In this document: positions 7,583 through 37,613 of the stretch, piece by piece | How the letters are laid out: every line of letters starts with the position of its first letter | Numbering within the stretch: the stretch's first letter is position 1 | NCBI GenBank assembly: GCA_030697645.1 | Contig: JAUYPI010000006.1 | Span: forward strand, 12,017 to 76,016 | From: a bacterium | GTDB lineage: Bacteria > Patescibacteriota > Minisyncoccia > Phycocordibacterales > VMGT01 | Reading direction: 5' to 3' | Length of the DNA: 64,000 bases | The notes under the pieces: generated by a model | The model's database searches: none | Told to the model about the DNA's origin: nothing | What the model saw: only the letters and a program-made list of their open reading frames with translations | Made by a program: the position numbers and the translations under genes

Positions 7583-7680
7583 TAATTTTCAAGTCTCAAT
7601 TTCCAATTTTCAATCAATTTTCAATTACTCAATTTTCAAACACGACGTCGTTCGTTATTGAAAATTAGAAATTGAAAATT
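7583..7680. repeat. Family-1 palindromic A-tract element (tandem AATTTTCAAT units flanking an ACGACGTCG core)
   Basis: caattttcaatcaattttcaat...caaacacgacgtcg...ttgaaaattagaaattgaaaatt. Confidence 0.85.
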
Positions 7681-7689
7681 GCACACGCT

Positions 7690-9015
7690 ATGCCTCCTAA
7701 TCCCGTAAACGACGTCACTCCGCCGCGGCGATCTATTCGATCGCTGGTGTTGCCGCACTCAGCAGGGGATCAGAGCGAACCCGCCGCAGGTCGTGGTTCA
7801 GGAGCCGCAGATAACGGAAGCATTGGAGGTAGAGGCCGCGGCACGCGCTACGGTAAGCGGCTGTGGGCCGTGGCTATATTCTCCATAGCGCTTCTCTACG
7901 TTGTTTTCTCGGTCTTTTTCGCCGGGGCGCAGGTGATTATTGAAACGCGTGAATATACCGGCTCGGTAGATGGCACATTCGCCGCATCTGCCGAGGGTAT
8001 GACGGCGCCGCTTACCTACCGGCTGGTCTCAATAGAAAAAGAAGCGACTCGCGGACTGCCAGCGACCGGCGAGGAGTTTGTTGAGCGCAAATCGTCGGGA
8101 ACCATAGTTATCTATAATAACTATGACGAGAAGCCGCAGCGCCTGATCAAGAATACCCGTTTTGAGACGCCGGACGGCTTGATCTACCGGATTGCAAAGT
8201 CTCTAGACGTTCCGGGGAGGAGAAAGGCGGATAATTCACTCGCCAACCGTTTTGATATGGGCAGCATCGAGGCGGTTGTCTTTGCGGATGCCGTAGGCGA
8301 GCGGTACAACATCCCCCAAGGCACGCGATTCACAATCCCGGGCCTTAAGGGCGACCCGCGCTTCGGAGGGTTCTATGCGGAGACGAAGACTCCTATTGAG
8401 GGTGGCTTTGCTGGTGTGGTGAAGACTGTATCAAGCGCGGCAGAGGATGAGGCGCGCCGCTCTCTCAAAGCCGAACTCGAAAGCGCCCTCAAGGCAGAGA
8501 TTACGGGGAGTATTCCGGAGCGCGCGCTTTGGTATGAGGACGGCGCGATTATCCGCTCGCTCTCGCTCGCCAACCGCTGGGAAGGCGACAAAGTGATCGT
8601 CGGCGAGAAGGCGGGAATCCATGCCATGGTGTTCGATCAGGTTGCTTTCTCAAAGCATCTTGCGCGCGCAACTGTTGCCGGTTTCGATGAGGGCGACGTG
8701 GTGATAGAGAATTTTGACGAGCTCGCCGTTACCTTTCTCGAGAAAGAGGCGTTTGATCCCGCGGTAAAGGGCGAGGTGCGTTTCTCGGTTCGCGGCACCC
8801 CGCATTTCAGGTGGGTGTTCGATGAGGCGCGCCTGCGCGCCGACCTTGCCGGAAAATCAAAACGAGCGATTAACACGATCCTTGCGGGTTACCCGGCGAT
8901 AGCCAAGGCTGAAGTTATTCTCCGTCCCTTCTGGGACAGCACGTTCCCAAAAAAGCCGGAGAGTATCGTGCTCATCTTGAAAGGACAGAATTCTGAAGGA
9001 GCGCCAGCTCAATAG
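7690..9015 (+). CDS. Hypothetical membrane-anchored protein
   Basis: ATG at 7690 just after the repeat (the TTG at 7672 lies inside the repeat); one TM helix (WAVAIFSIALLYVVFSVFFAG). Confidence 0.6.
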   Translation: MPPNPVNDVTPPRRSIRSLVLPHSAGDQSEPAAGRGSGAADNGSIGGRGRGTRYGKRLWAVAIFSIALLYVVFSVFFAGAQVIIETREYTGSVDGTFAASAEGMTAPLTYRLVSIEKEATRGLPATGEEFVERKSSGTIVIYNNYDEKPQRLIKNTRFETPDGLIYRIAKSLDVPGRRKADNSLANRFDMGSIEAVVFADAVGERYNIPQGTRFTIPGLKGDPRFGGFYAETKTPIEGGFAGVVKTVSSAAEDEARRSLKAELESALKAEITGSIPERALWYEDGAIIRSLSLANRWEGDKVIVGEKAGIHAMVFDQVAFSKHLARATVAGFDEGDVVIENFDELAVTFLEKEAFDPAVKGEVRFSVRGTPHFRWVFDEARLRADLAGKSKRAINTILAGYPAIAKAEVILRPFWDSTFPKKPESIVLILKGQNSEGAPAQ

Positions 9016-9069
9016 GTAGACAGGCGGCCACACCCGTGCTTCTTTCTCGCGCGGAACGTGGGGTAGATG

Positions 9070-9101
9070 GTTGCATGCGGTGCATAATGTTGCTATAGTT
9101 T
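9070..9101 (+). promoter_or_regulatory. Candidate sigma70 extended -10 promoter upstream of infA
   Basis: TTGCAT - 17 nt - TGcTATAGT. Confidence 0.4.
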
Positions 9102-9207
9102 ATCCGGCTCGCTTTCACTGTTGCAACCGCATCGTCACTGAAAGGTTATTGAGTCAACATTCTCTCTAATAAAGAGCAGATTTTCAAAAGTGAAAGTGGG
9201 GTTGGAC

Positions 9208-9426
9208 ATGCAGCGATCAGATTCGAGACATGAGGAAAAATTCGGCGTCGTCGAGGAGGCGCTGCCGGACGCAATTTTTCGCGTCTCGCTTGAGGGGGGC
9301 GGGGAATTGAAAGCTTACCTCGCGGGGAAAATGCGCTTGCACCACATACGGGTGCTTGTTGGCGACCGCGTCATTGTTCGAATTGATCCGTATGGAGGGA
9401 AAGGAAGGATAATCAAACGGCTATAA
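9208..9426 (+). CDS. infA: Translation initiation factor IF-1
   Basis: EKFGVVEEALPDAIFRVSLEGG...GKMRLHHIRVLVGDRVIV matches IF-1 S1-fold sequence. Confidence 0.9.
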   Translation: MQRSDSRHEEKFGVVEEALPDAIFRVSLEGGGELKAYLAGKMRLHHIRVLVGDRVIVRIDPYGGKGRIIKRL

Positions 9427-9429
9427 TAC

Positions 9430-9500
9430 CAAGTATATCAATCGCCAAAAAATTGGAATTTGGAAATTTGGTGTCTGGTGATTGTATTTTGGTTATTTGA
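9430..9500. repeat. Short variant A-tract repeat (aattggaatttggaaatttgg)
   Basis: Tandem 10-nt AT-rich units between infA and rpmJ. Confidence 0.5.
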
Positions 9501-9511
9501 GAACCAAAGCT

Positions 9512-9625
9512 ATGCGTGTTCGCTCAACCATTAAAAAGCGCTGCCGCACGTGCCAGATGATACGACGAAAAGGTCGTATGTATATCGTGTGTACCAATCC
9601 GCGGCACAAACAGAGGCAAGGATAG
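9512..9625 (+). CDS. rpmJ: Ribosomal protein L36
   Basis: [37 protein letters not shown] (CxxC...C...H zinc ribbon); too short for the ORF track. Confidence 0.9.
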
Positions 9626-9635
9626 GGTCTTTTTA

Positions 9636-9770
9636 TTTAATTTTCAATGCTCAATTTTCAATCAATTTTCAATGACCCAATTTTCAAACACGACGTCGTA
9701 CCGGCGCCGTCATTAAGTCATTGAAACATTGAAAATTTATTGGAAATTGCAAAATTGAAAATTGAAAATT
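9636..9770. repeat. Family-1 palindromic A-tract element
   Basis: Same architecture; central caaacacgacgtcgtaccggcgccgtcattaagtcattgaaac. Confidence 0.85.
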
Positions 9771-9777
9771 TCGTTCT

Positions 9778-10158
9778 ATGCGTTTATTCGGCATTACCAT
9801 TCCAGAGAAGAAGCGGCTCGATATCGGCCTCACGGCGATCTATGGGGTCGGACGTCCGCGCGCCGGAGCGGTTCTCCGGGAGGCAAAGGTAAACCCGGCG
9901 AAGCGACCGGCTGAGGTTAGTGCGGAAGACGAGGCGCGCATTCGGGCAGCACTCGAGAGCATCAAGCTCGAGGGCGAGCTGCGGCGGGATATAAGCGCAA
10001 ACATCAAGCGCCTCCGCGAGAGCAAATCGTACCGCGGCGTGCGCCATGTGCGGCACCTGCCGGCACGAGGTCAGCGCACGAAAACAAATTCACGCACCGT
10101 CCGCGGTAATGTGCGTAAGACCATGGGATCGGGGAGAAAAAAGGTGGAGAAGAAGTAG
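9778..10158 (+). CDS. rpsM: Ribosomal protein S13
   Basis: MRLFGITIPEKKRLDIGLTAIYGVGRPRA... typical S13. Confidence 0.92.
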   Translation: MRLFGITIPEKKRLDIGLTAIYGVGRPRAGAVLREAKVNPAKRPAEVSAEDEARIRAALESIKLEGELRRDISANIKRLRESKSYRGVRHVRHLPARGQRTKTNSRTVRGNVRKTMGSGRKKVEKK

Positions 10159-10171
10159 ATCGCTTCATTGT

Positions 10172-10307
10172 TTAATTTTCAATTATCAATTATCAATTTT
10201 CAATCAATTTCCAATGAACCAATTTTCAAACACGACGTCGCCGCCACTCAGTCATTCATTGAAACATTGAAAATTTAATGAAAATTGAAAATTGTAAATT
10301 GAAAATT
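10172..10307. repeat. Family-1 palindromic A-tract element
   Basis: aattttcaattatcaattatcaattttcaatcaatttccaat...caaacacgacgtcgccgccactcagtcattc... Confidence 0.85.
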
Positions 10308-10314
10308 TCGTGCT

Positions 10315-10749
10315 ATGGGCAAAAAACGCATCATCAAAAAAAGCGGCGGGGGTTATGACAGCGGACTTAAATCCCGTGCGCTCTCTCGTGTGGCAAAACG
10401 ACAGATCGAAAAGGGAGTGCTGCATATCCAGTCCACCTACAATAATACGCTCCTCACGCTCGCCGAGGCATCGGGTGCGGTGCTCTGCGCCTCGTCGAGC
10501 GGCGCGCTCGGCTTCAAGGGCGCGCGCAAAGGGACGCCCTATGCGGCGGCAAAGGTCGGTGAGCTTATCGGCGAGAAAGCGGTGCAGATGGGAATGCGAG
10601 ATGCAGACATTATAGTGAAGGGCGTTGGTGCAGGCCGAGAGTCGTCCGTCCGCGGCTTCATTTCGCGCGGGATCAGCATTAGCAGTCTTCGGGATGCAAC
10701 GCCCGTACCTTTCAACGGCCCGCGGCCGCCGAAGCCGAGAAGGGTGTAG
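10315..10749 (+). CDS. rpsK: Ribosomal protein S11
   Basis: GVLHIQSTYNNTLLTLAEASG...typical S11. Confidence 0.92.
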   Translation: MGKKRIIKKSGGGYDSGLKSRALSRVAKRQIEKGVLHIQSTYNNTLLTLAEASGAVLCASSSGALGFKGARKGTPYAAAKVGELIGEKAVQMGMRDADIIVKGVGAGRESSVRGFISRGISISSLRDATPVPFNGPRPPKPRRV

Positions 10750-10752
10750 CAC

Positions 10753-10888
10753 GAAATTTCCAATTTTCAATTTTACAATTTCCAATCAATTTTCAATGTG
10801 TCAATGATGCAATGACGGACGACGTCGTGTTTGAAAATTGGGTCATTGCAAAATTGATTGAAAATTGAAAATTGAGACTTGAAAATTA
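10753..10888. repeat. Family-1 palindromic A-tract element (inverted orientation)
   Basis: Reverse-complement arrangement: ...caatgacggacgacgtcgtgtttgaaaattggg... Confidence 0.85.
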
Positions 10889-10909
10889 AGTATACGAGAC
10901 ATCTACTTC

Positions 10910-11545
10910 ATGAAACTCGGACCAAAGTATAAAATTTGTAAGCGTTTAGGTCCCGACGTCTTTGAGAAATGCCAGACGCCGCGGTTTGCGCTGGTCGCGA
11001 GCCGCGCTCCGAAGACGAAGCGAGGTGGAAAGCGAGGCGGGAGGCCGTCTCGAACGGATTACGGCAAACACATGCTTGAAAAGCAGCGTGTGCGGTTTAC
11101 TTATGGCCTCTCGGAGCGGCAGTTTGCGCGCTATGTCAAAGAGTCGGCGCGACCGGCCGGCGCGAAGCCTGCAGAGGCGCTCTACCGGCGGATTGAGTCG
11201 CGTCTCGACAATATCGTGTACCGTCTGTCTCTTGCGCGCACGAGAGCACAGGCGCGCCAGCTCGTCTCGCACGGCCTCATTACGGTGAACGACCGGAAAA
11301 TGAGCAGCCCGTCGTATGCGGTGCGAGTCGGCGAGCGGATAGGGGTCAAGCAGAGCAAGCGCGATCTCGGTGTCTTTGCTTCCCGCGGCCGAGGTGCTGA
11401 AGGAGAAGGCATTGTGATGCCCCCGGCGTGGCTCACGTTCGACGGCGCGAAAATGGAAGGAGTTGTGAGCGCCTTGCCTGCCGCGGAGAATGCCGGAGCG
11501 CAGTCGCTTGATTTGCAGGCGGTGATTGAGTTTTATAGCAGATGA
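10910..11545 (+). CDS. rpsD: Ribosomal protein S4
   Basis: MKLGPKYKICKRLG... S4 N-terminus and S4 RNA-binding domain. Confidence 0.92.
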   Translation: MKLGPKYKICKRLGPDVFEKCQTPRFALVASRAPKTKRGGKRGGRPSRTDYGKHMLEKQRVRFTYGLSERQFARYVKESARPAGAKPAEALYRRIESRLDNIVYRLSLARTRAQARQLVSHGLITVNDRKMSSPSYAVRVGERIGVKQSKRDLGVFASRGRGAEGEGIVMPPAWLTFDGAKMEGVVSALPAAENAGAQSLDLQAVIEFYSR

Positions 11546-11547
11546 TG

Positions 11548-11672
11548 AAATTTTCAAGGCTCAATTTTTAATTTTCAATCAATTTTCAATGAACTAATTT
11601 TCAAACACGATGTCGTCCGTCGTTGAGTCATTGAAACATTGAAAATTTATTGAAAATTGCAAAATTGAAAAT
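11548..11672. repeat. Family-1 palindromic A-tract element
   Basis: Same units and core (caaacacgatgtcgtccgtcgttgagtcattgaaac). Confidence 0.85.
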
Positions 11673-11751
11673 TCTCAAGTCACCATGGTAATTTGACACC
11701 TCAAATTTTAAGTGTATAATTTATTTTGTTTACTAACCTACTTTTATTTTT

Positions 11752-12762
11752 ATGCCAGACTACACTATTGCGCTGCCGTCAAAACCACGGGTCGTCTTTG
11801 AAGAGGGAATGAGCGGCATGTATGAGATAGACGGCCTTTATCCAGGCTATGGACATACGCTTGGCAATTCGCTTCGGCGTATTATCCTCTCGTCGCTCCC
11901 CGGGGCGGCCATAACGCACATCAAGATCGAAGGGGTACCGCACGAATTTTCGACGATCGAGGGCGTCAAGGAGGACGTCGTCGCACTCACCCTAAATCTC
12001 AAACGCCTCCGGCTCTCGCTCGCCGGAGACGAGCCGCAGACGATGACCCTGAAGGTGAAAGGGCCGCGAGAAGTCATGGGTGCCGATATTGTGGCACCCG
12101 GGCAGGTTACCATATTGAATCCCGAGCTCCACATCGCAGAGGTGACGGCAAAGACGACGCTTGAGATGGAGCTCACCGTGGAGCGGGGGCTCGGGTATGT
12201 GCCAAAGGAGGTGCTTGAGAAAGAGCGCGTCGAGATCGGGACACTGACGCCGGATGCGATTTTTACTCCGATCCGCCGCGTCAACTACGAGGTGGAAAAT
12301 ATGCGCGTCGGCGATCGCACCGACTTCAATCGGCTGCGGGTCTTTGTTGAAACGGACGGGACGCTCACGCCGCGCGAAGCGCTCGAGCAGTCGATTGAGA
12401 TCATGATCCACCAACTCAAGGCAGTGATCGGCTTTGAGGAGAAGGAGGAAGATGAGACAGAGAGCGCAGATGAGACGATGCGTGGCGAACCCGCTCTTCC
12501 GCGCGGCGAGTCCGAGAACCCTGAGAAGCGGAGCGTCGCGGCGCACGAGGAGCTCGATAAAGAATTTTTGAAAACTCGTATCGAAACGCTTGACGGCCTC
12601 TCTGCCCGCACAGCGCACGCGCTCTCTGAGGCGAACATTCGAACCGTCGGCGGACTCGTACGCAAGAAGGCGGAAGACCTGCTTGCACTCGAGGGGATCG
12701 GGGAGAAAGCGATTGAGGAGATTAGAGACGTGCTTGCGAAAAACGGAGTAACGTTGAAGTGA
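11752..12762 (+). CDS. rpoA: DNA-directed RNA polymerase alpha subunit
   Basis: N-terminal dimerisation domain GYGHTLGNSLRRILLSSLPG and C-terminal alpha-CTD. Confidence 0.93.
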   Translation: MPDYTIALPSKPRVVFEEGMSGMYEIDGLYPGYGHTLGNSLRRIILSSLPGAAITHIKIEGVPHEFSTIEGVKEDVVALTLNLKRLRLSLAGDEPQTMTLKVKGPREVMGADIVAPGQVTILNPELHIAEVTAKTTLEMELTVERGLGYVPKEVLEKERVEIGTLTPDAIFTPIRRVNYEVENMRVGDRTDFNRLRVFVETDGTLTPREALEQSIEIMIHQLKAVIGFEEKEEDETESADETMRGEPALPRGESENPEKRSVAAHEELDKEFLKTRIETLDGLSARTAHALSEANIRTVGGLVRKKAEDLLALEGIGEKAIEEIRDVLAKNGVTLK

Positions 12763-12765
12763 TAT

Positions 12766-13323
12766 ATGCAGGAAAGAATTCCTTTGGAAAAAGTTGGGGA
12801 TGGATCCGAAATATCGAGACAGGAACCTCTCGGGATACTTTCTATTGGTAGTAATTGGACGGAATCTAGCGGCAGGCCGCTCGAAGAAGGAGAATCTCAG
12901 TTCTTTCACTCTACGTATGCATATAATATAAGTCCGGAACAATATCGGGACATTCTCGAAAAAGAAGAGTTTGTACTAGATCGACGGATGTTTGTTGACC
13001 CTATCCCACAAACCGGCTACGGACAGGTTCCCAATGTGGAGATGCGTACGTATAAAGAAAATCCGGACGAGCTTATACTTTTTCGTTTTATTACAAAAGA
13101 TGAAGAGCCGTTTCTTAAGATACAGGCCGAAGGACTTGATCTTAAGGATATAGGGAAAAAAGAAGGGCTGGTTGGAGGACCAGAAAAACGATTCGACCCT
13201 AATTATTTAGGGTATGCACTAAAATTAAGAAAAGTAGGCGAGGAACAATTGGGTGGTTACAAATTTCCTCATAGAGTTGTCACGTTTGAAGTTGTAGAGC
13301 GAATGCCTATTATTCCTGAATAA
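12766..13323 (+). CDS. Hypothetical protein in a low-GC insertion between rpoA and rplQ
   Basis: 185-aa ORF at ~43% GC versus ~62% flanks; starts 4 nt after the rpoA stop; no recognised motif. Confidence 0.55.
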   Translation: MQERIPLEKVGDGSEISRQEPLGILSIGSNWTESSGRPLEEGESQFFHSTYAYNISPEQYRDILEKEEFVLDRRMFVDPIPQTGYGQVPNVEMRTYKENPDELILFRFITKDEEPFLKIQAEGLDLKDIGKKEGLVGGPEKRFDPNYLGYALKLRKVGEEQLGGYKFPHRVVTFEVVERMPIIPE

Positions 13324-13386
13324 TTTTTAGCTTTTAGCGCTAGGTTTTTAGTGCTACTGTGTTAGTCCTCTAAAAGCTAATAGTCT
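13324..13386. repeat. Family-2 palindromic element (AGCTTTTAGC ... CTAAAAGCT)
   Basis: ttagcttttagcgctagg...cctctaaaagctaatag. Confidence 0.7.
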
Positions 13387-13740
13387 ATGCGTCACCACAA
13401 CAGAATCAAAAAATTCGGCCGCGTCGCGCGGCAGCGGAGAGCACTGATCTCCTCGCTCGCCTCATCCCTCATTCGTCATGAGAAGATCACGACGACCGAG
13501 GCGAAAGCAAAGGAGCTTCGGCCATTTATTGAGCGCCTCATCACCGTTGCGCGGCAGGGCACACTCGCCGCGAGGCGAACGACCCTTGCGCGACTTGGCG
13601 GAGAGAGTGTCGCTGCGCGTCGGCTCATGAGCTCTGTTGCCTCGCGCTATCTCTCTCGACCCGGGGGCTACACGCGCATCACAAAACTGCGTGCGCGCAC
13701 CAGCGACAGGGCACCGCAGGCGCGCATTGAATTTGTATGA
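13387..13740 (+). CDS. rplQ: Ribosomal protein L17
   Basis: MRHHNRIKKFGRVARQRRALISSLASSLIRHEKITTTEAKAKELRP typical L17. Confidence 0.92.
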   Translation: MRHHNRIKKFGRVARQRRALISSLASSLIRHEKITTTEAKAKELRPFIERLITVARQGTLAARRTTLARLGGESVAARRLMSSVASRYLSRPGGYTRITKLRARTSDRAPQARIEFV

Positions 13741-14108
13741 CAGCCACTGATCAGACACTCTATACAATCGACGCCCGAGCACAGCGTCTCGGGCGGGTTG
13801 CCGCCGATGCGGCGCGCGTCCTTATGGGCAAACACACGCCCCACTACGAGCGCAATCGGATAAACGGGCAGCGCGTACGCATCGAGCACGCGGCAGCACT
13901 CCAGATTGACGAGCGAAAAAAGAAGCATACAATATATTCGCGCCACTCGGGCTATCCGGGCTCGCTCAAGCGCGTAACGCTCGCCGCGATCGAGACGAAG
14001 CGCGGTCGAGAGCGTGCATACAGCGAGGCGCTCCGTCGGGCAGTCTACGGCATGCTGCCGAAGAACAAGCTGAGGCCGAGGATGATGAAACGGCTTGAAA
14101 TCATATAG
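13737..14108 (+). CDS. rplM: Ribosomal protein L13
   Basis: ATGA overlap with the rplQ stop; TLYTIDARAQRLGRVAADAARVLMGKH typical L13. Confidence 0.9.
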   Translation: MTATDQTLYTIDARAQRLGRVAADAARVLMGKHTPHYERNRINGQRVRIEHAAALQIDERKKKHTIYSRHSGYPGSLKRVTLAAIETKRGRERAYSEALRRAVYGMLPKNKLRPRMMKRLEII

Positions 14109-14172
14109 AGAAAATGATGTAGAGACACGCAGCAAGCAGAACGTCCTCAGCATCAAAACCTAAATGCCGATA

Positions 14173-14284
14173 AAATTTTCAATTATCAATTTTCAATTTT
14201 CAATCAATTTTCAATTTCTCAATTTTTCAAACACAACGCCGACGTCGTCCATTGAAAATTGTAAAATTGAAAATTGAAAATTTA
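14173..14284. repeat. Family-1 palindromic A-tract element
   Basis: aattttcaattatcaattttcaattttcaatcaattttcaatttctc...caaacacaacgccgacgtcgtcc... Confidence 0.85.
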
Positions 14285-14290
14285 AACTGT

Positions 14291-14713
14291 ATGCCTTCCT
14301 CAACCACCCCCAAACCCAAGAAATCCGACCGCTACATCGAGGCAGTTGGCCGCCGCAAGACGGCGATTGCGCGCGTGCGGATCTCACCTGCTTCAAAAAC
14401 GAACGTCTTGATCAACGACCGCTCGATCGAATCGTACTTTCCAGTGGCCACCCTTGCGCAGAGTGTCCTCTCGCCGCTTGCGCTCGCGCCGTCGGCGCAT
14501 TTTAGCGTAAGCGTCCATGTTGTCGGCGGGGGCATTCGCGGCCAGGCAGAGGCGGTGCGCCACGGTATCGCGCGCGCGCTCACGCTCTCGAGCGCTGATC
14601 TCCGGACCCCTCTGAAGCGCGCTGGATTTCTCACGCGTGATCCTCGTGCCAAGGAGCGGCGCAAATTCGGGCTCAAAAAAGCGCGCAAGGCACCGCAATG
14701 GAGTAAACGATAG
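14291..14713 (+). CDS. rpsI: Ribosomal protein S9
   Basis: YIEAVGRRKTAIARVRISP...GGGIRGQAEAVRHGIARAL...KKARKAPQWSKR; ATG at 14291 directly after the repeat. Confidence 0.9.
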   Translation: MPSSTTPKPKKSDRYIEAVGRRKTAIARVRISPASKTNVLINDRSIESYFPVATLAQSVLSPLALAPSAHFSVSVHVVGGGIRGQAEAVRHGIARALTLSSADLRTPLKRAGFLTRDPRAKERRKFGLKKARKAPQWSKR

Positions 14714-14767
14714 TTTACTCCATTGCGGGCGAAGGGGGTCGGGGAAACTGTAGTTTAGTTCCCTCTA

Positions 14768-14886
14768 AATTTTCAATTATCAATTTTCAATCAATTTTGC
14801 AATGAATCAATTTTCAAACACGACGTCGTCCGTCACTCAGTCATTGAAACGTTGAAAATTCATTGAAAATTGCAAAATTGAAAATT
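14768..14886. repeat. Family-1 palindromic A-tract element
   Basis: Same architecture. Confidence 0.85.
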
Positions 14887-14896
14887 AGACAATCCT

Positions 14897-15469: not shown

Positions 15470-15499
15470 AAGCAGAACGGAACACGCCTCCGAGTCATC

Positions 15500-15640
15500 T
15501 AATTTCCAATTTTCAATTTTGCAATTTTCAATCAATTTTCAATTATCCAATTTTCAAACACGACGCCGACGACGTCCGTCATTGAGTCATTGAAACATTG
15601 AAAATTCATTGGAAATTGAAAATTGTAAATTGAAAATTAA
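15500..15640. repeat. Family-1 palindromic A-tract element
   Basis: Same architecture (caaacacgacgccgacgacgtccgtcattgagtcattgaaac). Confidence 0.85.
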
Positions 15641-15662
15641 GAAATAATTTTAAAACTAAACT

Positions 15663-17570: not shown

Positions 17571-17596
17571 GCAGCATGCGGCAAGCACACGGTTCC

Positions 17597-17710
17597 CAGC
17601 TTTTAGCTGTTAGCTTATAGCTTTTAGCACGGACGGCGGAGCCTCTCAAAAGCTAACAGCGTTATAAGTTTTCCAGCCCTTTGGGCGCAAAGGGCTATGG
17701 CTAAAAGCTC
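17597..17710. repeat. Family-2 palindromic element with inner GC hairpin
   Basis: agcttttagctgttagcttatagcttttagc...ctctcaaaagctaacagc...ccctttgggcgcaaaggg...ggctaaaagct. Confidence 0.75.
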
Positions 17711-17712
17711 GT

Positions 17713-18798: not shown

Positions 18799-18833
18799 GC
18801 AAAAAAGAAGACCCCACAGCGCAAAGTGCGAAA

Positions 18834-18872
18834 ACCCCCGTATTCAAGTATGCTCGCTTGAATACGGGGTTT
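18834..18872 (+). terminator. Rho-independent terminator after dnaJ
   Basis: ccccgtattcaag...cttgaatacgggg followed by tttgctctgt. Confidence 0.6.
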
Positions 18873-18915
18873 GCTCTGTCCCAGCTCCACCTACATAGGC
18901 TTGATCTCGATAACG

Positions 18916-25715: not shown

Positions 25716-25734
25716 TCCCCTGAATCGGAACGAG

Positions 25735-25880
25735 TAATCACTCACACCCGTCATTGCGAGCGGAGCGAAGTAATCCAGTTGTTGAGCCGTAATTCTGGAT
25801 TGCCTCGTCGCTCCACTCCGTTCCGCTTCTCGCAATGACGGCTGTGTTGTGCAGCTTTGTGATAGGTGTGAGTGATTACC
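25735..25880. repeat. Family-3 palindromic element (second copy)
   Basis: gtaatcactcacacccgtcattgcgagcgg...ctcgcaatgacgg...ggtgtgagtgattac; interior ctggattgcctcgtcgctccactccg matches the 85-275 copy. Confidence 0.65.
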
Positions 25881-25936
25881 GGAACGAATGTTGACGACCG
25901 TATGTCGTGCGTTGTATAGTAGTAGAGTATACGCCC

Positions 25937-26254: not shown

Positions 26255-26315
26255 GAACCGTGCATAGAGGCGGGCATTGTCTCTCGTCTCTTTTTTGCGT
26301 CGTCTGTTTTCGTCT

Positions 26316-26348
26316 CTAAAAGCTAAAAGCTATCAGCTAACAGCTTGT
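26316..26348. repeat. Family-2 half-element (ctaaaagctaaaagctatcagctaacagc) directly upstream of fusA
   Basis: Right-arm sequence only. Confidence 0.5.
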
Positions 26349-26351
26349 ACT

Positions 26352-28487
<2,136 letters not shown>

Positions 28488-29776: not shown

Positions 29777-29986
29777 ATGGAAACAAACGACGTCATACAG
29801 AAACTCGAGGCTCACGAAAAAAAGCTTGACGCGATATTTCGGTCTACGGAAAAAACGCGCAGGTATATATTCTGGACTATGATTGGCAGCATCGTTGTAT
29901 TCGTACTGCCCCTCATCGGTCTCTTATTCGTGGTGCCTTATTTTTTGAGCGTGTATTCCTCAATGTATCAGGGATTGGGGCTCTGA
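29777..29986 (+). CDS. Small hypothetical membrane protein
   Basis: 69 aa with one long hydrophobic segment. Confidence 0.3.
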   Translation: METNDVIQKLEAHEKKLDAIFRSTEKTRRYIFWTMIGSIVVFVLPLIGLLFVVPYFLSVYSSMYQGLGL

Positions 29987-29993
29987 TACATTC

Positions 29994-31106
29994 CTATCGT
30001 GGAGAAGATGCAGGATTCGTCTGGCGGAGCGGGATCGTGAATCGTATGGTAGTGCCTTCGTTTTCAGCGCTGGTGAAATCCATCTTACCGCCGTGGTTTT
30101 CGACGATATTTTTCGCCATGTAGAGGCCGAGGCCGGTGCCGGCGGTAGCATAGAGTTTAGCATTTCTGGCGCGGAAGAATTGATCGAAGACCTGGCGCTG
30201 TTGCTCCTTCGGGATGCCAATGCCGGTGTCTGCGACGCTGACCTCGATGTCTCGCGCCTTCTTTCGTACGGTGAGCGCGACCGCACCTCCTTCAGGCGTA
30301 TATTTGATCGCGTTGTTGATAAGGTTGTCAATAACGATGCCGACTTTTTCTGCGTCGATCGAAATTGAGGGCAGCACGGAGGGCAGAGAGATTGAGAAAG
30401 CGACTCGCTTACGCTTGGCAACAGGACGCGTTGCGTTAACGACCTTTTCAATAATCGGCAGGAAATCCTGTTCCACCGGCACGAAGCCAAAGCGTCCTTC
30501 CTCGATGCGCGCAGTGTCGAGGAGGTCGCTAATGAGCTCTGTCGCAGTGACTGTCACCCCGAGGCTCTCATTGAGTATTTTGAGCTGTTCCTCACTGAGC
30601 GGCCCGAGTTCGCCGTCAACAAGCGACTGGAGCGACCAACGCACGCCTGTGAGAGGTGTCCGGAGCTGGTGCGCCGCGACTGAGACGAATTCTGATTTGA
30701 CGAGATCAAGGCCTTCGAGGCGCGTGTTCGCGCTCGAGAGCTCGATATCACGGCGCACGAGCACCTTGCCGACCTCGCTGAATTCACCCGCGACGCGGGA
30801 ATACTCATCGTTCGCCCGGGAGGACTCTCGGTCTTTGCGCACGAGAAGCCGTGCGCTATCGGTGTTCTCGTGAAGCCATACTTCGAGCTCTTGGTTGTGT
30901 TTGCTGAGCGTGCGCACGGCGCTGAACGCTGCCGTCGCCGCCCCCGCTGCAGTGAGGGCGGTGAGAGCGCCCCAGAGCACGCGGTTAAGCAGGCCTGCCG
31001 TTAAAATCGCGGCCGCAGTCACGAGCGGCGAGAGAAGGAGCGCGAGGGTAAGGCGGAGGCGGGGGGAGAGAGTAAAGATATTGCCGGCATGTTTGGGAAA
31101 GTGCAT
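29994..31106 (-). CDS. Sensor histidine kinase
   Basis: N-terminal TM segments, H-box AAHQLRTPLTGV, N/G boxes NLINNAIKYT, DTGIGI, GTGLGL; ATG at 31106 (TTG at 31121 also possible). Confidence 0.85.
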   Translation of the reverse strand: MHFPKHAGNIFTLSPRLRLTLALLLSPLVTAAAILTAGLLNRVLWGALTALTAAGAATAAFSAVRTLSKHNQELEVWLHENTDSARLLVRKDRESSRANDEYSRVAGEFSEVGKVLVRRDIELSSANTRLEGLDLVKSEFVSVAAHQLRTPLTGVRWSLQSLVDGELGPLSEEQLKILNESLGVTVTATELISDLLDTARIEEGRFGFVPVEQDFLPIIEKVVNATRPVAKRKRVAFSISLPSVLPSISIDAEKVGIVIDNLINNAIKYTPEGGAVALTVRKKARDIEVSVADTGIGIPKEQQRQVFDQFFRARNAKLYATAGTGLGLYMAKNIVENHGGKMDFTSAENEGTTIRFTIPLRQTNPASSPR

Positions 31107-31124
31107 GGGAGTAAAATGCAAAGT

Positions 31125-31335
31125 TCAAAGCGCAAAACGCAAAACAACAACGCAAAATAACACAGTAAAATTCGAATTTCCAACCAACAAGCTCCAAATC
31201 AAATAAATTCCAAGCTCCAACCAACAAGCTCCAAACAAATTTCAAATTCCAATGCATCAAATCTCAAACACGCACGTCGTGTTTGGAAATTGGATTTTGA
31301 ATATTGGGATTTGTTTGGAAATTGTTTTTTGGAAA
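31125..31335. repeat. Long variant palindromic A-tract element (ccaaatttc/ggaaattgg units around caaacacgcacgtcgtgtttgg)
   Basis: Tandem ~10-nt units on both sides of a palindromic ACGTCG-like core. Confidence 0.7.
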
Positions 31336-31387
31336 TTGGAGATTCGTTTTGCTTTTTGCACTGTTGTTTTTCGCTTTACACTTTGCG

Positions 31388-32590
31388 TTACTTCGTCCCA
31401 ATCCCCACAATCGTAATCGTCCCATTATGGAACAGCGTCGGCTCGGGTGCAGTGCCGCCGCCGATCGCGTGTATCGCGGGCGCGTACTCGCCGTAGCTTG
31501 CAATGCCGAGAAGCGGCGTATCACGCCCCACGATATCAAGAATAGCGTTGGTTTCGTCTTTGATCATAGCACCGAGGAGTTTTTTGCGTGAGATGCTCTC
31601 AAAGACGAGGAGGAGTTTCAGCGAGACGTGTGAGCGCTTCAAGCGCTCCATCAGGCCCTCGGTCGCGGTGCATGCAGCAGTCAGCGCTTTTTCTTTGCTC
31701 CCGATCATGAGACGAACCCGAGCGCCCTCGGGTATTGCCGCGGCGAGAGTGAGCGAACCGTCTTCTTCTGCCCTGAGGGGATTTCGGATGAGGTACTCAT
31801 CGCTCACGCCAGTGCGGACGCCAAGTGGGTAGCCGAGTGCCGAATGTGCGAGTGGCTCGGCGCGAAGTTTTGATAGATCTTCCCCGAAATAGTCTTCGTA
31901 GATAGACGCAGCTCTCCTTCCCTCGAGTTCAAAAACGCGCGTACCTTCTGCGCGCGTTACTCTCTGCGGTATGCCGACCGGTATCCAGCCGCCTTCGACG
32001 CCGATGCCGAGCACGCATTCGCCTGAGATCGCACAACCGACAAGAGCGTCGTCTCCAACGAGAGCGTCCCGGTACTGGAACGTCCGCTCGAACGTGAGCT
32101 CATCACTTGCCGCCACTCCGGCAGCCGGTATATTCGCACCGAGCACACTCTGCAAGCCCCCGAGCACCTCGGCAGCGCCGCCTCGGAGCATATTAGCGAA
32201 GAGGAGGAGTCCGACGAGCTCCCCGGTGGCGAGTTCCCTGATTTCTTGCCCTACGAGGGCGCCTGCGGCGCGGGCGCCGTTTTTCATGAGCCCCATACCG
32301 GAGGCGAATGTGACTGAGTCGCTCTCGAGCGCGACGACCGCTACCGTCTGGTCAACGGGGCCTTCATTCGTGAGGATCCCCGTGGCTGAACAGCCGACAA
32401 GGGGAGCGTTGCCGCTTGCGTCCCGCACGCCGCGGACGAGCGCCTCCTGGTCGTAGAGTGTAGAAGCGAATACCAAAAGCTGCGTCGGCCGCTCAACCCC
32501 CGCCCTCTCAAGGGCGCTCTGAGCTGCCGCAAAACCCGCTTGGTGCGCGTCGTGTTCTTTGGCGGTGCCGACTCCGACGATGAGAGACAT
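31388..32590 (-). CDS. FIST-domain (FIST N + FIST C) sensory protein
   Basis: 400-aa Gly/Ala-rich two-lobed protein lying between RR and HK genes; FIST-like composition. Confidence 0.5.
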   Translation of the reverse strand: MSLIVGVGTAKEHDAHQAGFAAAQSALERAGVERPTQLLVFASTLYDQEALVRGVRDASGNAPLVGCSATGILTNEGPVDQTVAVVALESDSVTFASGMGLMKNGARAAGALVGQEIRELATGELVGLLLFANMLRGGAAEVLGGLQSVLGANIPAAGVAASDELTFERTFQYRDALVGDDALVGCAISGECVLGIGVEGGWIPVGIPQRVTRAEGTRVFELEGRRAASIYEDYFGEDLSKLRAEPLAHSALGYPLGVRTGVSDEYLIRNPLRAEEDGSLTLAAAIPEGARVRLMIGSKEKALTAACTATEGLMERLKRSHVSLKLLLVFESISRKKLLGAMIKDETNAILDIVGRDTPLLGIASYGEYAPAIHAIGGGTAPEPTLFHNGTITIVGIGTK

Positions 32591-32801
32591 GGGGGATGAT
32601 GGCGCAACCGCTCACGCCTTAAAATTTTGCGCTCGAGCTTCGGCGTTTAGAAATAACAGTCGCCTCATTGACGAAAAACGCATAACTCGCCTGCGGGCTC
32701 AAACAGATGCGTTTTTCTATTCGGCTCCTTTATTTCCAAAACGCCTCTCGCTATGCGCAAAATTTTAAGGCGTGAGCGGTTCCGGCGTGAGAGTGGTTTG
32801 A

Positions 32802-33272
32802 CTACGTAATTCCGAGCAACTGCTCTATCTTCGCCACGATCTCGTTCGGCGATGTGTTCGCTTTGACAGCGTAGTCCGCAGCCCCGATCTGCCTTGCTTT
32901 CTCAAGGTCGTCTCGTTGACCGAGATTGGAGAGAATAAGCACGGGGATATGTTTCATCTTTTCATTCGCCTTGATCTCGCGCAGGAGCACGAAGCCGTCC
33001 TCGCCGGGAAGGATGAGATCAAGGCAAACGAGATTGATCGGCTTTTCGGCAAGGAGTGCGCGACCCTCTTCGACCGTCTCCGCCCGAAAGACGGTAAATT
33101 TCTGATCGTGGAGCTTTCGCTCAAGCATGCCGCCGAGAAACGGGTCGTCTTCAACAACGAGGAGCACAGCGCGAGTCTCCTCAGGTGAGATTTCTCGTGG
33201 AGCATCGCCTGATCCTGCCACACTGTCCGCACCGGGACCGGTGGCGCTCTCTTGAATGCTGTCATCATTCAT
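32802..33272 (-). CDS. Response regulator, receiver domain only (CheY-like)
   Basis: LLVVEDDP...LDLILPGEDGF...PVLILSNLG...ADYAVK receiver motifs; ATG at 33272. Confidence 0.8.
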   Translation of the reverse strand: MNDDSIQESATGPGADSVAGSGDAPREISPEETRAVLLVVEDDPFLGGMLERKLHDQKFTVFRAETVEEGRALLAEKPINLVCLDLILPGEDGFVLLREIKANEKMKHIPVLILSNLGQRDDLEKARQIGAADYAVKANTSPNEIVAKIEQLLGIT

Positions 33273-33550
33273 AGAAGTATTGAGAGTATAACAAAGAGAG
33301 CGCACGGCGCACAAGGACACCCCTGTGTATAACGTGCGCTTGACAGGGGATGCAGGCCGCGTTACATTGTGATATAAGGTCAAAATGTTACATGTCAAAT
33401 GTCATGAACTCGGATTTCGAGCCCCGAATATTCGGATTTGGATAAGTCTTTTTTATCAGTTAATTTTTTACGCCGAGATCGCTTCGCACTGTCGTCCGCG
33501 CTCATCGAGGCGTCGGTAATTTCCGAAGCGATTCTCGCGTACCACATAGT

Positions 33551-34741
<1,191 letters not shown>

Positions 34742-34781
34742 CAATGGTAACCACCCACCAATAGTTCTGATTCGATTGGTC

Positions 34782-34910
34782 AAATTTTCAATTTTACAAT
34801 TTCCAATCAATTTTCAATGTGTCAATGACTCAATGACGGGCGAAGTCGTGTTTGAAAATTGGGTCATTGAAAATTCACTGAAAATTGAAAATTGTAAATT
34901 GAAAATTTCG
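34782..34910. repeat. Family-1 palindromic A-tract element (inverted orientation)
   Basis: ...caatgacgggcgaagtcgtgtttgaaaattggg... Confidence 0.85.
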
Positions 34911-34949
34911 AATGGGAGAGGTGGGTGGGCTTTTGCTTGATTTTTTGCC

Positions 34950-35318
34950 ATGGTTACTAAATCAACGGCTCCGCGTAAGCGCGCCGCGGCAGCGCGCAAA
35001 AAGGAGGAGGTTTCGCACAAGCTCCGCATTCGCATCCGCGCCTACGAGCACAAGATTCTTGACTCGTCCGTAAAGCAGGTCATGGACACCGCGCTTCGCT
35101 ACGATGCGCGGGTCGAGGGTCCGACGCCGCTTCCGGTTGAGATCAAAAAGTACACAGTCAACCGCTCATCGTTCGTGCACAAGAACGCGCGCGAGCAGTT
35201 CGAGATGCGCACGCACAAGCGCCTCATTGACATCCTCGACCCGGCGCCGAAGTTGATCGAAGCGCTTACGAATCTCACGTTGCCGTCGGGAGTGAATGTG
35301 GACGTGAAGATGATGTAA
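34950..35318 (+). CDS. rpsJ: Ribosomal protein S10 with short basic N-terminal extension
   Basis: LRIRIRAYEHKILDSSVKQVMDTA... typical S10. Confidence 0.92.
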   Translation: MVTKSTAPRKRAAAARKKEEVSHKLRIRIRAYEHKILDSSVKQVMDTALRYDARVEGPTPLPVEIKKYTVNRSSFVHKNAREQFEMRTHKRLIDILDPAPKLIEALTNLTLPSGVNVDVKMM

Positions 35319-35325
35319 AGGTTTG

Positions 35326-35436
35326 AGCTTTTAGCTTATAGCTGTTAGCTTTTAGGGGTTGTCGCGGCGTGCGCGAAGCACGCAATCGTTAGTCTGTCGT
35401 GCCTCTAAAAGCTATAAGCTAACAGCTAAGAGCTTT
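35326..35436. repeat. Family-2 palindromic element
   Basis: gagcttttagcttatagctgttagcttttagg...GC hairpin...ctctaaaagctataagctaacagctaagagc. Confidence 0.8.
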
Positions 35437-35441
35437 TTTGT

Positions 35442-36059
35442 ATGAAATTCATTCTTGCCACCAAACAGCACATGACCCAGCTCTTCGACGAGGACGGGCG
35501 TGCATACCCGGCGACTCTACTTACCGCTGGGCCGGTTACCGTGACGCAGACGAAGAGCAAAGAGCGCGATGGCTACCGTGCGGTGCAGGTGGGTTTCGGG
35601 GCTCAGAAAGCGCAGCGGCTCTCGGCGCAGCAGCGCGGGCACCTCAAGGGGCTCGGAGCGTTTCGGACGCTCCGCGAATTTCGCTTAGCCGAGAGTGAGG
35701 CCGCGCTTGAGCGCGGCGCGATGCTCGACGTCTCGCAGTTTGCTCCGGGAGAGCGCGTGCGGGTCTCCGCTACATCGAAAGGCAAGGGCTTTCAGGGAGT
35801 GGTGAAGCGCCACGGATTCAAGGGCGGGCCGAGGAGCCACGGCCAGAAGCACTCGGAGCGCGAGCCGGGCTCGATCGGCGGCGGGGGGCGAGCCGGCGGC
35901 CGCGTCGTAAAAGGGATGCGCATGGCGGGCCGCATGGGCGGCGATCGCGTCACGGTGCGCGGTCTTCGGGTGCTCGCGGTGGACCCCGAAGCGCACGAGC
36001 TTCTCCTCCGCGGCGCGGTCCCCGGGAGGCGCGGAACGCTTGTTGAGGTGAGGGGATAG
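35442..36059 (+). CDS. rplC: Ribosomal protein L3
   Basis: Typical L3 (GKGFQGVVKRHGF). Confidence 0.92.
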   Translation: MKFILATKQHMTQLFDEDGRAYPATLLTAGPVTVTQTKSKERDGYRAVQVGFGAQKAQRLSAQQRGHLKGLGAFRTLREFRLAESEAALERGAMLDVSQFAPGERVRVSATSKGKGFQGVVKRHGFKGGPRSHGQKHSEREPGSIGGGGRAGGRVVKGMRMAGRMGGDRVTVRGLRVLAVDPEAHELLLRGAVPGRRGTLVEVRG

Positions 36060-36295
36060 AGGACTCTGCATGGATTTTTTCAAAATAAGGAGAGAAAATA
36101 TACCGCCGAGCACTATAGCATAATTGCTACATGGCTCGAGCGGATAGCGGTATTGCTTCTTGCTTCGCTTGTAGTCCAAAAAATTGTTTCCGGCAGCTCG
36201 TTTGTTGACACGAGCGTGGCAGGTGGGGTTTTATTGTCAGGGGTTGTGTACTACGCGGCGCTTTTATTTTTACAGAACTCGTAGTATAGTACTCG

Positions 36296-36406
36296 TATGG
36301 TCTCGCAACTTCTCATTTATATTGGGGGGGCGCTCATTGCGGTGATGTTTATTATTTTGGCGTATCCAATGGAGGGAAAACATGGGCATGGACGCAGTTG
36401 ATAAGT
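36296..36406 (+). CDS. Tiny hydrophobic ORF (36 aa)
   Basis: MVSQLLIYIGGALIAVMFIILAYP...; speculative. Confidence 0.15.
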
Positions 36407-36578
36407 GTATACGAGAATGATATAAAGATTCATCCCCCGCCCGGAGGCGGGGGATCGTGTGAGGGGTGTGAGTAAGAGGCGTTGATGTCAGTTTGCCGCT
36501 TTTTTGGAAATCGAGCTTATCTCTGTCCAATAAAAATGACCATCACCCCTGGTGTAACGGCAAGTGGCGTAAGCATTA

Positions 36579-36719
36579 TATGCTGAAGAAAACACCTCGT
36601 GGGCAGTCGTACACAGTACCGTCTTTCAGTGTGATAGATGTTGGCTCCTTTCAGTCGGCGGTACATCCGACAACAAGTAACGCGAGCAATGCCGTAGCGA
36701 TACAAAACACTCTTTTCAT
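36579..36719 (-). pseudogene. Mini lipoprotein ORF interrupted by an in-frame TGA
   Basis: ggaaggg RBS, MKRVFCIATALLALLVVGCTAD (lipobox), TGA, then in-frame KEPTSITLKDGTVYDCPRGVFFSI*. Confidence 0.3.
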
Positions 36720-36809
36720 CGGTTTCCCTTCCATGTGATGCGAGTTATGTAGGCCAGTCTGGCTAGACCGACGTTTCGGGTTTCTACACGGAGAATTATA
36801 CAAAAATTT

Positions 36810-37475
36810 ATGCATGTCAAGTCTTATAGCCAAACAGGTGCAGAAGCGGGGACCATTGATCTTCCCGATGCCGTTTTTGCTCTGCCGTGGAACGCGGACC
36901 TCGTGCACCAGGTCGTGGTCGGCATGCAGGCGAATGCGCGCACGAATGTCGCGCACACCAAGGGTCGTGGCGAGGTGCGCGGCGGCGGGAAAAAACCCTG
37001 GAAGCAGAAGGGCACCGGCCGCGCGCGGCATGGCTCGATCCGCTCACCGCTCTGGAGGGGCGGTGGGGTGACGTTTGGTCCGACGAACGAGAAATCATAC
37101 ACACAGAAGATCAACCAGAAGATGCGCGTGAAAGCGCTGTTCACCGCGCTCTCGCAGAAGCTACGCGACGGCGAGATGCTTTTTGTGGACTCGCTCACGT
37201 TTCCCGCTCCGAAGACCGCCGACGCGAAGCGCACCGTGACGGCGCTTGCAGGTATTGAAGGGTTCGGGCGGCTCGCGACGAAGACCCGCAACACCGCCCT
37301 CCTTGCGCTCGCCCGTCGCGACGAGGCGGTCGAAAAAAGTTTCCGCAACTTCGGCAACATCAGTACGGTTGAAGCCCGCAACTTGAATCCGGTAGAGGCG
37401 TTGAAATATAAATATATAATCTTTACCGAACCGAGTGAGGTGTGTAAGATACTTGCCGAGCGACAGCGGCAGTAA
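36810..37475 (+). CDS. rplD: Ribosomal protein L4
   Basis: Typical L4 (KGRGEVRGGGKKPWKQKGTGRAR). Confidence 0.92.
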   Translation: MHVKSYSQTGAEAGTIDLPDAVFALPWNADLVHQVVVGMQANARTNVAHTKGRGEVRGGGKKPWKQKGTGRARHGSIRSPLWRGGGVTFGPTNEKSYTQKINQKMRVKALFTALSQKLRDGEMLFVDSLTFPAPKTADAKRTVTALAGIEGFGRLATKTRNTALLALARRDEAVEKSFRNFGNISTVEARNLNPVEALKYKYIIFTEPSEVCKILAERQRQ

Positions 37476-37479
37476 GAGA

Positions 37480-37613
37480 ATAATTTCCAATTTTCAATTT
37501 TGCAATTTTCAATCAATTTTCAATTATCTAATTTTCAAACACGAACGTCGCCGTGATTGAGTCATTGAAACATTGAAAATTTATTGAAAATTGAGCATTG
37601 AAAATTGAAAATT
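37480..37613. repeat. Family-1 palindromic A-tract element
   Basis: Same architecture. Confidence 0.85.

Follow-up and report, generated by a model that had tools for sequence, protein, structure and literature searches.

A stretch of 64,000 nucleotides (64 kb; hereafter the window, to which positions refer) from contig JAUYPI010000006.1 of assembly GCA_030697645.1 carries two clusters of translation and chaperone genes, infA-rpmJ-rpsM-rpsK-rpsD-rpoA-rplQ-rplM-rpsI-grpE-dnaK-dnaJ and tuf-rpsJ-rplC-rplD-rplW-rplB, with unrelated genes around them. The window is about 55% GC, and its RpoA is closest to proteins from Parcubacteria/Paceibacterota metagenome-assembled genomes (MAGs), with Kaiserbacteria among the named matches. 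Patescibacteria, or the candidate phyla radiation (CPR), are considered to have extremely streamlined genomes in which ribosomal protein (r-protein) operons are conserved and tightly packed. Most spacers in the two clusters of the window are occupied by palindromic elements, the most abundant of which belong to a repeat family designated here as family A. A first-pass annotation of the sequence had interpreted these repeats as curved-DNA cassettes that insulate the expression of neighboring genes. The structure, distribution and probable origin of family A are discussed in the following sections.

A family of palindromic repeats between translation genes

Family A has ten copies in the window (E1 to E10, Table 1), all intergenic and 98-141 bp long, which occupy the spans that the first-pass annotation had assigned to its main copies. 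Motif counts, a profile and an alignment agree that these spans form one family. The motif AATTTTCAAT, with at most one mismatch, has 88 matches in the window against 4.7 expected, almost all of them inside the listed spans, and the core TTTCAAACACGACGTCG has 11 matches against 0.28 expected. The ten spans align under the consensus TTTAATTTTCAATTTTCAATTTTCAATTTTCAATCAATTTTCAATGACCCAATTTTCAAACACGACGTCGTCCGTCATTGAGTCATTGAAACATTGAAAATTnATTGAAAATTGnAAAATTGAAAATTGAAAATTTCG with pairwise identities of 70-88%, and an nhmmer profile built from this alignment retrieves all ten copies with E values of 1e-20 to 1e-40. A further variant proposed at 9430-9500 has no profile match and consists merely of a short array of the 8-mer AAATTTGG.

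All copies follow the same plan, in which a T-rich arm of AATTTTC repeats is followed by a conserved GC core (CAAACACGACGTCG...) and an inverted arm of GAAAATT repeats. The inverted arms are 22-54 nt long, with 71-95% complementarity. The GC core, for which the form ACACGACGTCGTGT is also used, is asymmetric, specific and about 35 nt long; it lies in one orientation in eight copies and in the opposite orientation in two (E4 and E9). The description of the element as an imperfect palindrome with a conserved core and copies in both orientations is thus confirmed by alignment and folding. The arms had been read as decamers with 10-bp phasing, but their unit is the heptamer AATTTTC (GAAAATT in the right arm), with a few irregular steps of 8, 11 and 15 nt that are kept between copies. 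Unit spacings are 7, 8, 11 and 14-15 bp, Tandem Repeats Finder returns a period of 7, and the spectral power of the arms has its maximum at 7-8 and is low at 10-10.5. The number of arm units differs between copies; irregular units (CAATC, CAATGACCC) are common to all of them and to the copies in other genomes described below.

Pairwise comparison shows that the closest kin among the window copies are not physical neighbors. An 8-mer unit (AATTTTGC/GCAAAATT) is found in the right arm of some copies and the left arm of others (groups E2, E5, E6 / E8, E10 / E4, E9), at a position that is independent of core orientation, and the combinations vary among copies. Because the arm marker and the core orientation combine differently, the comparison suggests that the core has been inverted between the inverted arms.

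On folding, each copy forms a single long hairpin (-22 to -45 kcal/mol; z scores of -4.5 to -7.5), and none of 200 shuffled sequences is as stable. A covariation test on the window copies, which vary too little among themselves, returned 0 compensatory pairs. The right arm ends 6-22 nt upstream of an ATG in eight of the ten copies, in agreement with the annotated distance of 5-25 nt; the exceptions are E9, at 39 nt, and E5, at 79 nt with a separate promoter in between. The base of the hairpin is mostly within 11 nt of the ATG and often as near to the upstream stop codon, with no consistent bias toward the start side or the stop side across copies. Such closeness to both codons is what insertion into very short spacers would give.

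Empty and differently filled spacers in relatives

In four related contigs (L014, L018, L019 and L020; RpoA 65-69% identical), the genes follow one another in the same order at distances of 1-40 nt, and none of these spacers contains an element, consistent with the earlier remark that normally tight r-protein operon spacers have been expanded by the repeats. Because these relatives retain the gene order with such short spacers, the comparison shows that the family A copies are derived insertions, which entered former 1-40-nt operon spacers or the loops of pre-existing hairpins.

Three closer relatives, L011 (RpoA 88% identical), L012 (79%) and L013 (69%), have enlarged spacers without any family A match. 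Their spacers hold other palindromes, the arms of which are short tandem repeats, mostly heptamers and some octamers, of the types CAAAAGT/CAAAGCG ('B'), GCAAAGC/CAAAACG ('B2'), CTAGGCG, TAGGGNN and ACGAATA. The presence of different families at the same sites in relatives amounts to turnover at those sites. L011 and L012 share an orthologous copy ahead of the rpoA promoter, with 82% identity, and two B2 copies within L011 are 98% identical; these families therefore both persist and keep copying.

A sequence identical to the window is present in assembly GCA_034376905.1, where short contigs stop inside or near repeats, as is seen in short-read assemblies of this organism. For example, contig L016 spans from within E5 to within E6. 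Contig L017, from the same organism, is identical to the window at every element and displays no insertion polymorphism.

Family A in other genomes

The exact 20-mer AATTTTCAAACACGACGTCG is present in one GTDB-representative genome, a Patescibacteria MAG of 36% GC, and in nine metagenome contigs, one of which is a chance coding match while the others are 32-40% GC. One of the low-GC contigs is labelled Patescibacteria, and a flanking protein of another falls in a 90% cluster with a named member so labelled. The copies elsewhere share the plan (AATTTTC)n - AAACACGACGTCGTGTTT - (GAAAATT)n and adjoin unrelated housekeeping genes (pth, ruvX, eno, parAB, trxB, lgt), lying between co-directional genes in 11 of 12 cases. 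They often fill the whole spacer, with 2-6 nt from stop codon to element and 0-5 nt from element to ATG. In L056, the 124-nt map-ruvX spacer is the element alone, from the base after the TAA stop codon through the base before the ATG. The copy in L008 sits within a further outer inverted repeat.

The core was not found in the viral contigs of IMG/VR. A triple-heptamer pattern is present in 35 viral contigs (L021-L055) as one-armed direct (AATTTTC)n arrays of 4-10 units, without the core or an inverted arm. The GC content of these viral contigs varies widely, from 0.26 to 0.63, and some of the arrays lie just upstream of an ATG (e.g., L022 11955-12008, L038 5309-5359 and L052 6028-6081). Database searches returned nothing similar to family A: Rfam gives no match at the gathering threshold and only sub-threshold matches to miRNA-precursor-like hairpins at an E-value threshold, and blastn of one copy against plasmids and phages gives none.

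Nested copies and other heptamer-armed families

E9 lies in the loop of a GC stem (34750-34759 / 34920-34929; ACCACCCACC/GGTGGGTGGG) that is followed by a T-run at 34930-34947 (CTTTTGCTTGATTTTTT), together forming a terminator-like hairpin after tuf. The entire tuf-rpsJ spacer, E9 included, folds as one 204-nt hairpin of -74.5 kcal/mol (z -7.3). The second variant proposed by the first-pass annotation, at 31125-31335, does contain a divergent A-like element, but this element is nested in a different palindromic family and is no simple variant. Two window copies, E9 and the A-like element of 31122-31387, are thus nested in older hairpins. Family A is accompanied in the window by further palindromes with other heptamer arms and by one solo arm upstream of fusA (Table 1), families that the first-pass annotation had overlooked. 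For fusA, the ATG at 26353 is taken as the true start, and initiation at the TTG at 26277 is improbable. The original observation is therefore real and wider than first reported, extending to several families and several genomes.

Table 1. Positions of family A copies, related palindromes and transcription signals in the window and in relatives.
Feature	Sequence	Positions	Strand	Context and properties
E1, short-core variant with long left and short right arm	Window	7583..7680	+	unk374 / GlxA-like gene spacer; ATG 7690; nhmmer E 8.5e-25; -21.8 kcal/mol, z -5.4
E2	Window	9636..9770	+	rpmJ-rpsM spacer; 9 nt past stop, 7 nt to ATG; -41 kcal/mol, z -6.6
E3	Window	10172..10307	+	rpsM-rpsK spacer; z -5.6
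E4, core inverted	Window	10753..10888	-	rpsK-rpsD spacer; top nhmmer match, E 6.7e-40 on minus strand; z -5.8
E5	Window	11548..11672	+	Begins 2 nt past rpsD stop; separate promoter downstream
E6, short-core variant	Window	14173..14284	+	rplM-rpsI spacer; z -6.5
E7	Window	14768..14886	+	rpsI-grpE spacer; z -4.8
E8	Window	15500..15640	+	grpE-dnaK spacer; z -6.1
E9, core inverted	Window	34782..34910	-	tuf-rpsJ spacer; in loop of older GC stem
E10	Window	37480..37613	+	rplD-rplW spacer; 4 nt past stop, 6 nt to ATG; z -6.5
Composite	Window	31122..31387	.	Divergent A-like element (~31176-31334; TTCCAAA arms, core CAAACACGCACGTCGTGTTTG) central in family-B2-type palindrome; weak nhmmer match at 31206-31344, E 1.5e-10; -99.9 kcal/mol, z -8.9
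B2-type outer palindrome of composite	Window	31122-31175 + 31335-31387	.	GCAAAGC/CAAAACG arms; 80% identical to L011 B2 copy
Family C palindrome (AGCTTTT/AGCTGTT/AGCTTAT heptamer arms)	Window	35319..35441	+	rpsJ-rplC spacer; -56.1 kcal/mol, z -6.0; overlooked in first-pass annotation
Family C palindrome	Window	17590..17712	+	dnaK-dnaJ spacer
Short family C palindrome	Window	13324..13386	+	Upstream of rplQ
Solo family C right arm (CTAAAAG x4)	Window	26316..26345	+	7 nt upstream of true fusA ATG (26353)
ACATTTG-armed palindrome	Window	38028..38110	+	rplW-rplB spacer; fold weakly better than shuffles, z -2.0
GAAAGTG/GAAGGTG-armed imperfect palindrome	Window	39004-39085	n/a	With the 38028-38110 element, flanks rplB
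Perfect sigma-70-type promoter TTGACA-16-TATAAT (12/12)	Window	11693..11720	+	For rpoA; between E5 and rpoA, outside element
Canonical bidirectional intrinsic terminators (GC stem flanked by A-/T-runs)	Window	4292-4364, 18799-18915		Between convergent genes
Palindromes in r-protein spacers	L011	1-105, 1186-1285, 2066-2170, 2834-2945, 3592-3690
Palindromes in r-protein spacers	L012	48-140, 630-715, 1338-1442, 2538-2645
Palindromes in r-protein spacers	L013	1160-1250, 1598-1710, 2515-2680

Family A as a probable non-autonomous interspersed repeat

We favor, with a probability of about 60%, the interpretation of family A as a non-autonomous palindromic interspersed repeat, of the broad kind that includes miniature inverted-repeat transposable elements (MITEs), REPINs, Correia/CREE, ERIC and RUP, and as one of several heptamer-armed families that invaded the intergenic DNA of a Kaiserbacteria-like lineage of Parcubacteria (Patescibacteria). 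A real hairpin-forming family, an element-less ancestral state, turnover, horizontal spread, nesting, dispersed kin, shuffled combinations of arm and core, contig breaks near copies and few expression signals all argue for it. Like MITEs, the elements are small (<~300 bp), non-coding and dispersed in many copies, have terminal inverted repeats, differ in presence between related genomes and occur nested.

In the scenario that we propose, the elements are probably read through within the operon mRNA because they carry no good promoter or terminator. The two arms would pair into an AU-rich hairpin of about 50 bp, capped by the GC core, so that the preceding stop codon and the following start codon would lie no more than about 10-30 nt apart across the base of the helix. 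Shine-Dalgarno (SD)-independent initiation or translational coupling, the apparent norm for genes of the window, would be little disturbed, and the insertion would be tolerated. Stabilization of the mRNA or processing of the RNase III type are possible secondary effects. The heptamer unit may most simply reflect replication slippage within the arms. Among long simple repeats of bacteria, heptamer units are reported to be the most frequent, perhaps owing to polymerase slippage (Mrazek 2007, as cited in PMC4679880), and slippage in heptamers would explain the variable unit numbers.

Several observations weigh against this interpretation. A target-site duplication and a parent transposase, which would establish family A as a MITE, are not found in the window. 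The flanks of the ten copies have no duplication that is consistent on inspection, although the AT-rich repetitive ends blur the boundaries. No transposase family matches above threshold among about 40 open reading frames (ORFs) of the window (Pfam scans of 30 ORFs together with precomputed gene calls for two sub-regions), the sole hint being a sub-threshold Zn-ribbon match, and the window has neither a longer parent element nor a RAYT (Y1 transposase) gene flanked by repeats. Moreover, a heptamer-armed element of any kind is present in 16 of 21 spacers of the translation and chaperone clusters, compared with 1 of the 31 other spacers in the window (Fisher p = 3e-8), and a purely selfish model does not predict this concentration. 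The orthologous copy in L006 and L008 is 83% identical, compared with 80-82% for the flanking genes, in a spacer that is otherwise unalignable, and very different genomes share an identical core. These two features could reflect purifying selection for a host function. Together with the enrichment at highly expressed genes, they make a functional role of the elements possible.

Alternative readings

A first alternative assigns the elements such a role directly. The heptamers would be binding arrays for a host protein (e.g., an RNA-binding protein such as S1 or one with a cold-shock domain, or a nucleoid protein that binds DNA), and the hairpin would act as a riboregulator that gates downstream initiation until it is opened by ribosomes terminating upstream. 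The TAACTGA arrays of Beggiatoaceae, Cyanobacteria and Bacteroidetes are a parallel: tandem heptamers a few nt before start codons, including those of r-protein operons, without a canonical ribosome-binding site and with a patchy distribution that suggests horizontal spread (PMC4679880). Tandem heptamers that likewise stop a few nt short of an ATG, with no ribosome-binding site, are seen in 8 of 10 family A copies and in the solo fusA array. However, the TAACTGA arrays are one-sided, direct and without a core, whereas family A has two inverted arrays of a different heptamer around a GC core and forms a hairpin (PMC4679880). The one-armed arrays of the 35 viral contigs, the enrichment at highly expressed genes, the conservation of the L006/L008 copy and of the core, and a hairpin base that abuts the stop and start codons also agree with binding arrays. 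Against them stand the many unrelated heptamers in the same genome and its relatives, which argue against one specific protein, the dispensability of the elements in relatives, the inconsistent placement toward the start or stop side and the lack of detected compensatory changes among copies. We consider this alternative unlikely.

A broader proposal, which we regard as quite unlikely, combines mobility with function. Patescibacteria would harbor an undescribed class of horizontally spreading, heptamer-armed hairpins that home to stop-start junctions and hairpin loops and have been co-opted as RNA-level modules, either as coupling hairpins that are opened by the terminating ribosome and license SD-independent initiation or as RNase III-type processing sites that set r-protein stoichiometry. 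An enzyme not recognized as a transposase, or hairpin-dependent copying, would mobilize them.

In the reading of the first-pass annotation, each element would terminate transcription of the gene before it, initiate that of the gene after it and supply the context for translation initiation, splitting the operons into monocistronic units. The position of elements between nearly all translation genes, usually shortly before an ATG, is in keeping with this cassette, but we hold it to be improbable. Relatives have the same genes in tight operons without any element. The arms of family A contain weak promoter-like sequences (TTGAAA-17-GAAAAT), which match the consensus at just 9 of 12 positions, symmetrically on both strands. 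Correia elements of Neisseria are reported to create promoters and to be processed by RNase III (PMC2649163). In the window, however, rpoA evidently requires a promoter and is preceded by a separate, perfect one that follows the element. This promoter (11693-11720) is the sole strong sigma-70-type site in 7-18 kb and is conserved in L011 and L012, where the repeat ahead of it belongs to another family. Moreover, the unrelated CTAGGCG, TAGGGNN and AGCTTTT arm families occupy the same positions in relatives without promoter-like sequence.

Termination fares no better. A terminator scan finds 18 sites, compared with 13.9 in shuffled sequences, which is no enrichment, and reports none inside any element. 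The stems of family A are AU-rich, lack a U-tract and continue into ...GAAAAUUUCG, unlike the canonical terminators of the window. As these canonical terminators lie between convergent gene pairs, the organism evidently uses ordinary ones, and family A is rejected as an intrinsic terminator.

The lack of SD sequences had been ascribed to an initiation context supplied by the element. SD-less starts are general in the window, however, with or without an element upstream; rplM, tuf, rpoA and a trpS-like gene are element-free examples. At start codons throughout the window (e.g., 9513, 9778, 10315, 13387, 14897, 37620, 38158 and 56271), an SD sequence is mostly missing and a CTATG context is common; clear GGAGG-like sites precede a minority of genes, most of them at 44-56 kb.

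The strong curvature predicted from phased A-tracts is likewise not found. A dinucleotide wedge model, with Bolshoy-type angles (Bolshoy et al., 1991), behaves as expected on controls, giving end-to-end/contour ratios of 0.34 for phased A6, 0.53 for (GA4T4C)n and 1.0 for (GT4A4C)n. The elements score 0.93-0.98, equal to their own shuffles and to random genomic 130-mers. With an arm period of 7-8 and elements predicted to be straight, curved DNA is rejected. Nor is a lineage-specific expression system supported, as some relatives lack the elements, others carry different families, and family A is found beside unrelated genes in distant low-GC genomes. This pattern across relatives and distant genomes fits invasion better than a designed regulator. 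The reading of family A as a curved-DNA insulator that combines terminator, promoter and initiation context is thus largely unsupported.

Local generation without mobility, in which replication slippage and template switching build heptamer arrays and inverted copies in AT-rich spacers, would suit the differing unit numbers and the commonness of heptamers (Mrazek 2007, as quoted in PMC4679880) but is very improbable, since the core of about 35 nt and the irregular units shared by all copies and by other genomes require common descent of whole elements rather than independent local growth.

Two further candidates were rejected. Because repeats of the AATTTTCAAT type are essentially limited to the elements in the window, family A is not a DNA-uptake sequence. 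In tandem interspaced guide RNA (TIGR) arrays, which lie beside a Tas (Nop-domain) gene, each tandem unit has two spacers and box C/D motifs (PMC12045711); family A copies are instead scattered singly, lack variable spacers and have no Tas-like gene next to them.

Comparison with known repeat systems

The closest known systems to family A, interpreted as a non-autonomous repeat, are Correia/CREE elements and REPINs; the general kind is common, but the defining sequences are not. The Correia elements of Neisseria (CREE/NEMIS) are likewise about 100-150 bp long, with inverted-repeat arms around a conserved core, many intergenic copies near genes, hairpin-forming ability and co-transcription, which for family A is probable. 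CREE are reported to form promoters at their ends, to bind IHF and to be cut or protected by RNase III (PMC2649163). Family A has no sequence similarity to CREE as described in that paper, a comparison with the literature rather than an alignment. CREE have a 26-nt terminal inverted repeat in place of the tandem heptamer arms, and family A, in a CPR host, has no evident TA duplication or strong end promoter.

REPINs of the REP-RAYT system resemble family A as hairpin doublets of inverted short repeats that are strictly extragenic, form genome-specific families and reside for long periods at orthologous sites; they have no target duplication (PMC3116915), and no consistent one is visible for family A. 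In contrast to REPINs, family A does not have a GC-rich REP unit of 20-40 nt with a GTAG head; its arms are AT-rich tandem heptamers, and no RAYT/Y1 gene is present in the window. ERIC/IRU, RUP, BOX and other small MITE-like repeats of bacteria, reviewed in PMC2229807 and PMC3184786, likewise lie in transcribed intergenic parts of operons as imperfect palindromes of about 100-130 bp that may influence mRNA stability. They differ from family A in their unrelated sequence, their occurrence in other phyla and their lack of heptamer-repeat arms.

The searchable literature on repeats, MITEs, REPs and leaderless mRNAs in CPR/Patescibacteria yielded no description of such repeats. Family A is best classified among the small palindromic interspersed repeats, as a new family in a phylum for which no earlier description was found in that literature.

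Other features of the window

The ribosomal clusters of the window are broken up (26353-28487, 29994-33272, 33551-34741 and 39016-39534). A two-component/FIST gene set lies on the opposite strand between fusA and tuf, and a NUDIX gene follows rplB in the usual place of rpsS. The rplC-rplD gap (36060-36809) is, at 750 nt, unusually large for an S10 cluster, and its only ORFs are small and look hydrophobic. In the FIST-response regulator and TrpRS-like-unk115 spacers, at 32591-32801 and 25716-25906, lie two very long hairpins that contain GC and are of another type (27-bp perfect outer stem at -92 kcal/mol; the other -78 kcal/mol).

A 185-aa ORF at 12766-13323, located 3 nt after rpoA and before rplQ, has a GC content at third codon positions of 0.33, compared with 0.6-0.79 in its neighbors. 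It has no Pfam match, is missing at that position in all seven relatives examined and looks horizontally acquired. Further downstream, 50574-53705 encodes a 1043-aa protein with an SNF2-related helicase domain and a C-terminal methyltransferase domain, which may be related to defense or restriction.

Implications

In a phylum considered to be streamlined, several families of palindromic repeats have accumulated in the r-protein operons of this sub-lineage and quadrupled the non-coding DNA there. One family, A, is also present in very different low-GC Patescibacteria, and such elements can be used to trace horizontal exchange between uncultured episymbionts. The elements also help to explain the fragmentation of MAGs at r-protein loci. 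Moreover, they constitute a natural experiment in which SD-independent, coupled translation tolerates 130-nt hairpins between stop and start codons. To our knowledge, almost nothing is known about gene expression in the Patescibacteria. If the hairpins are indeed processed or gate translation, they would provide a handle on gene expression in this phylum.

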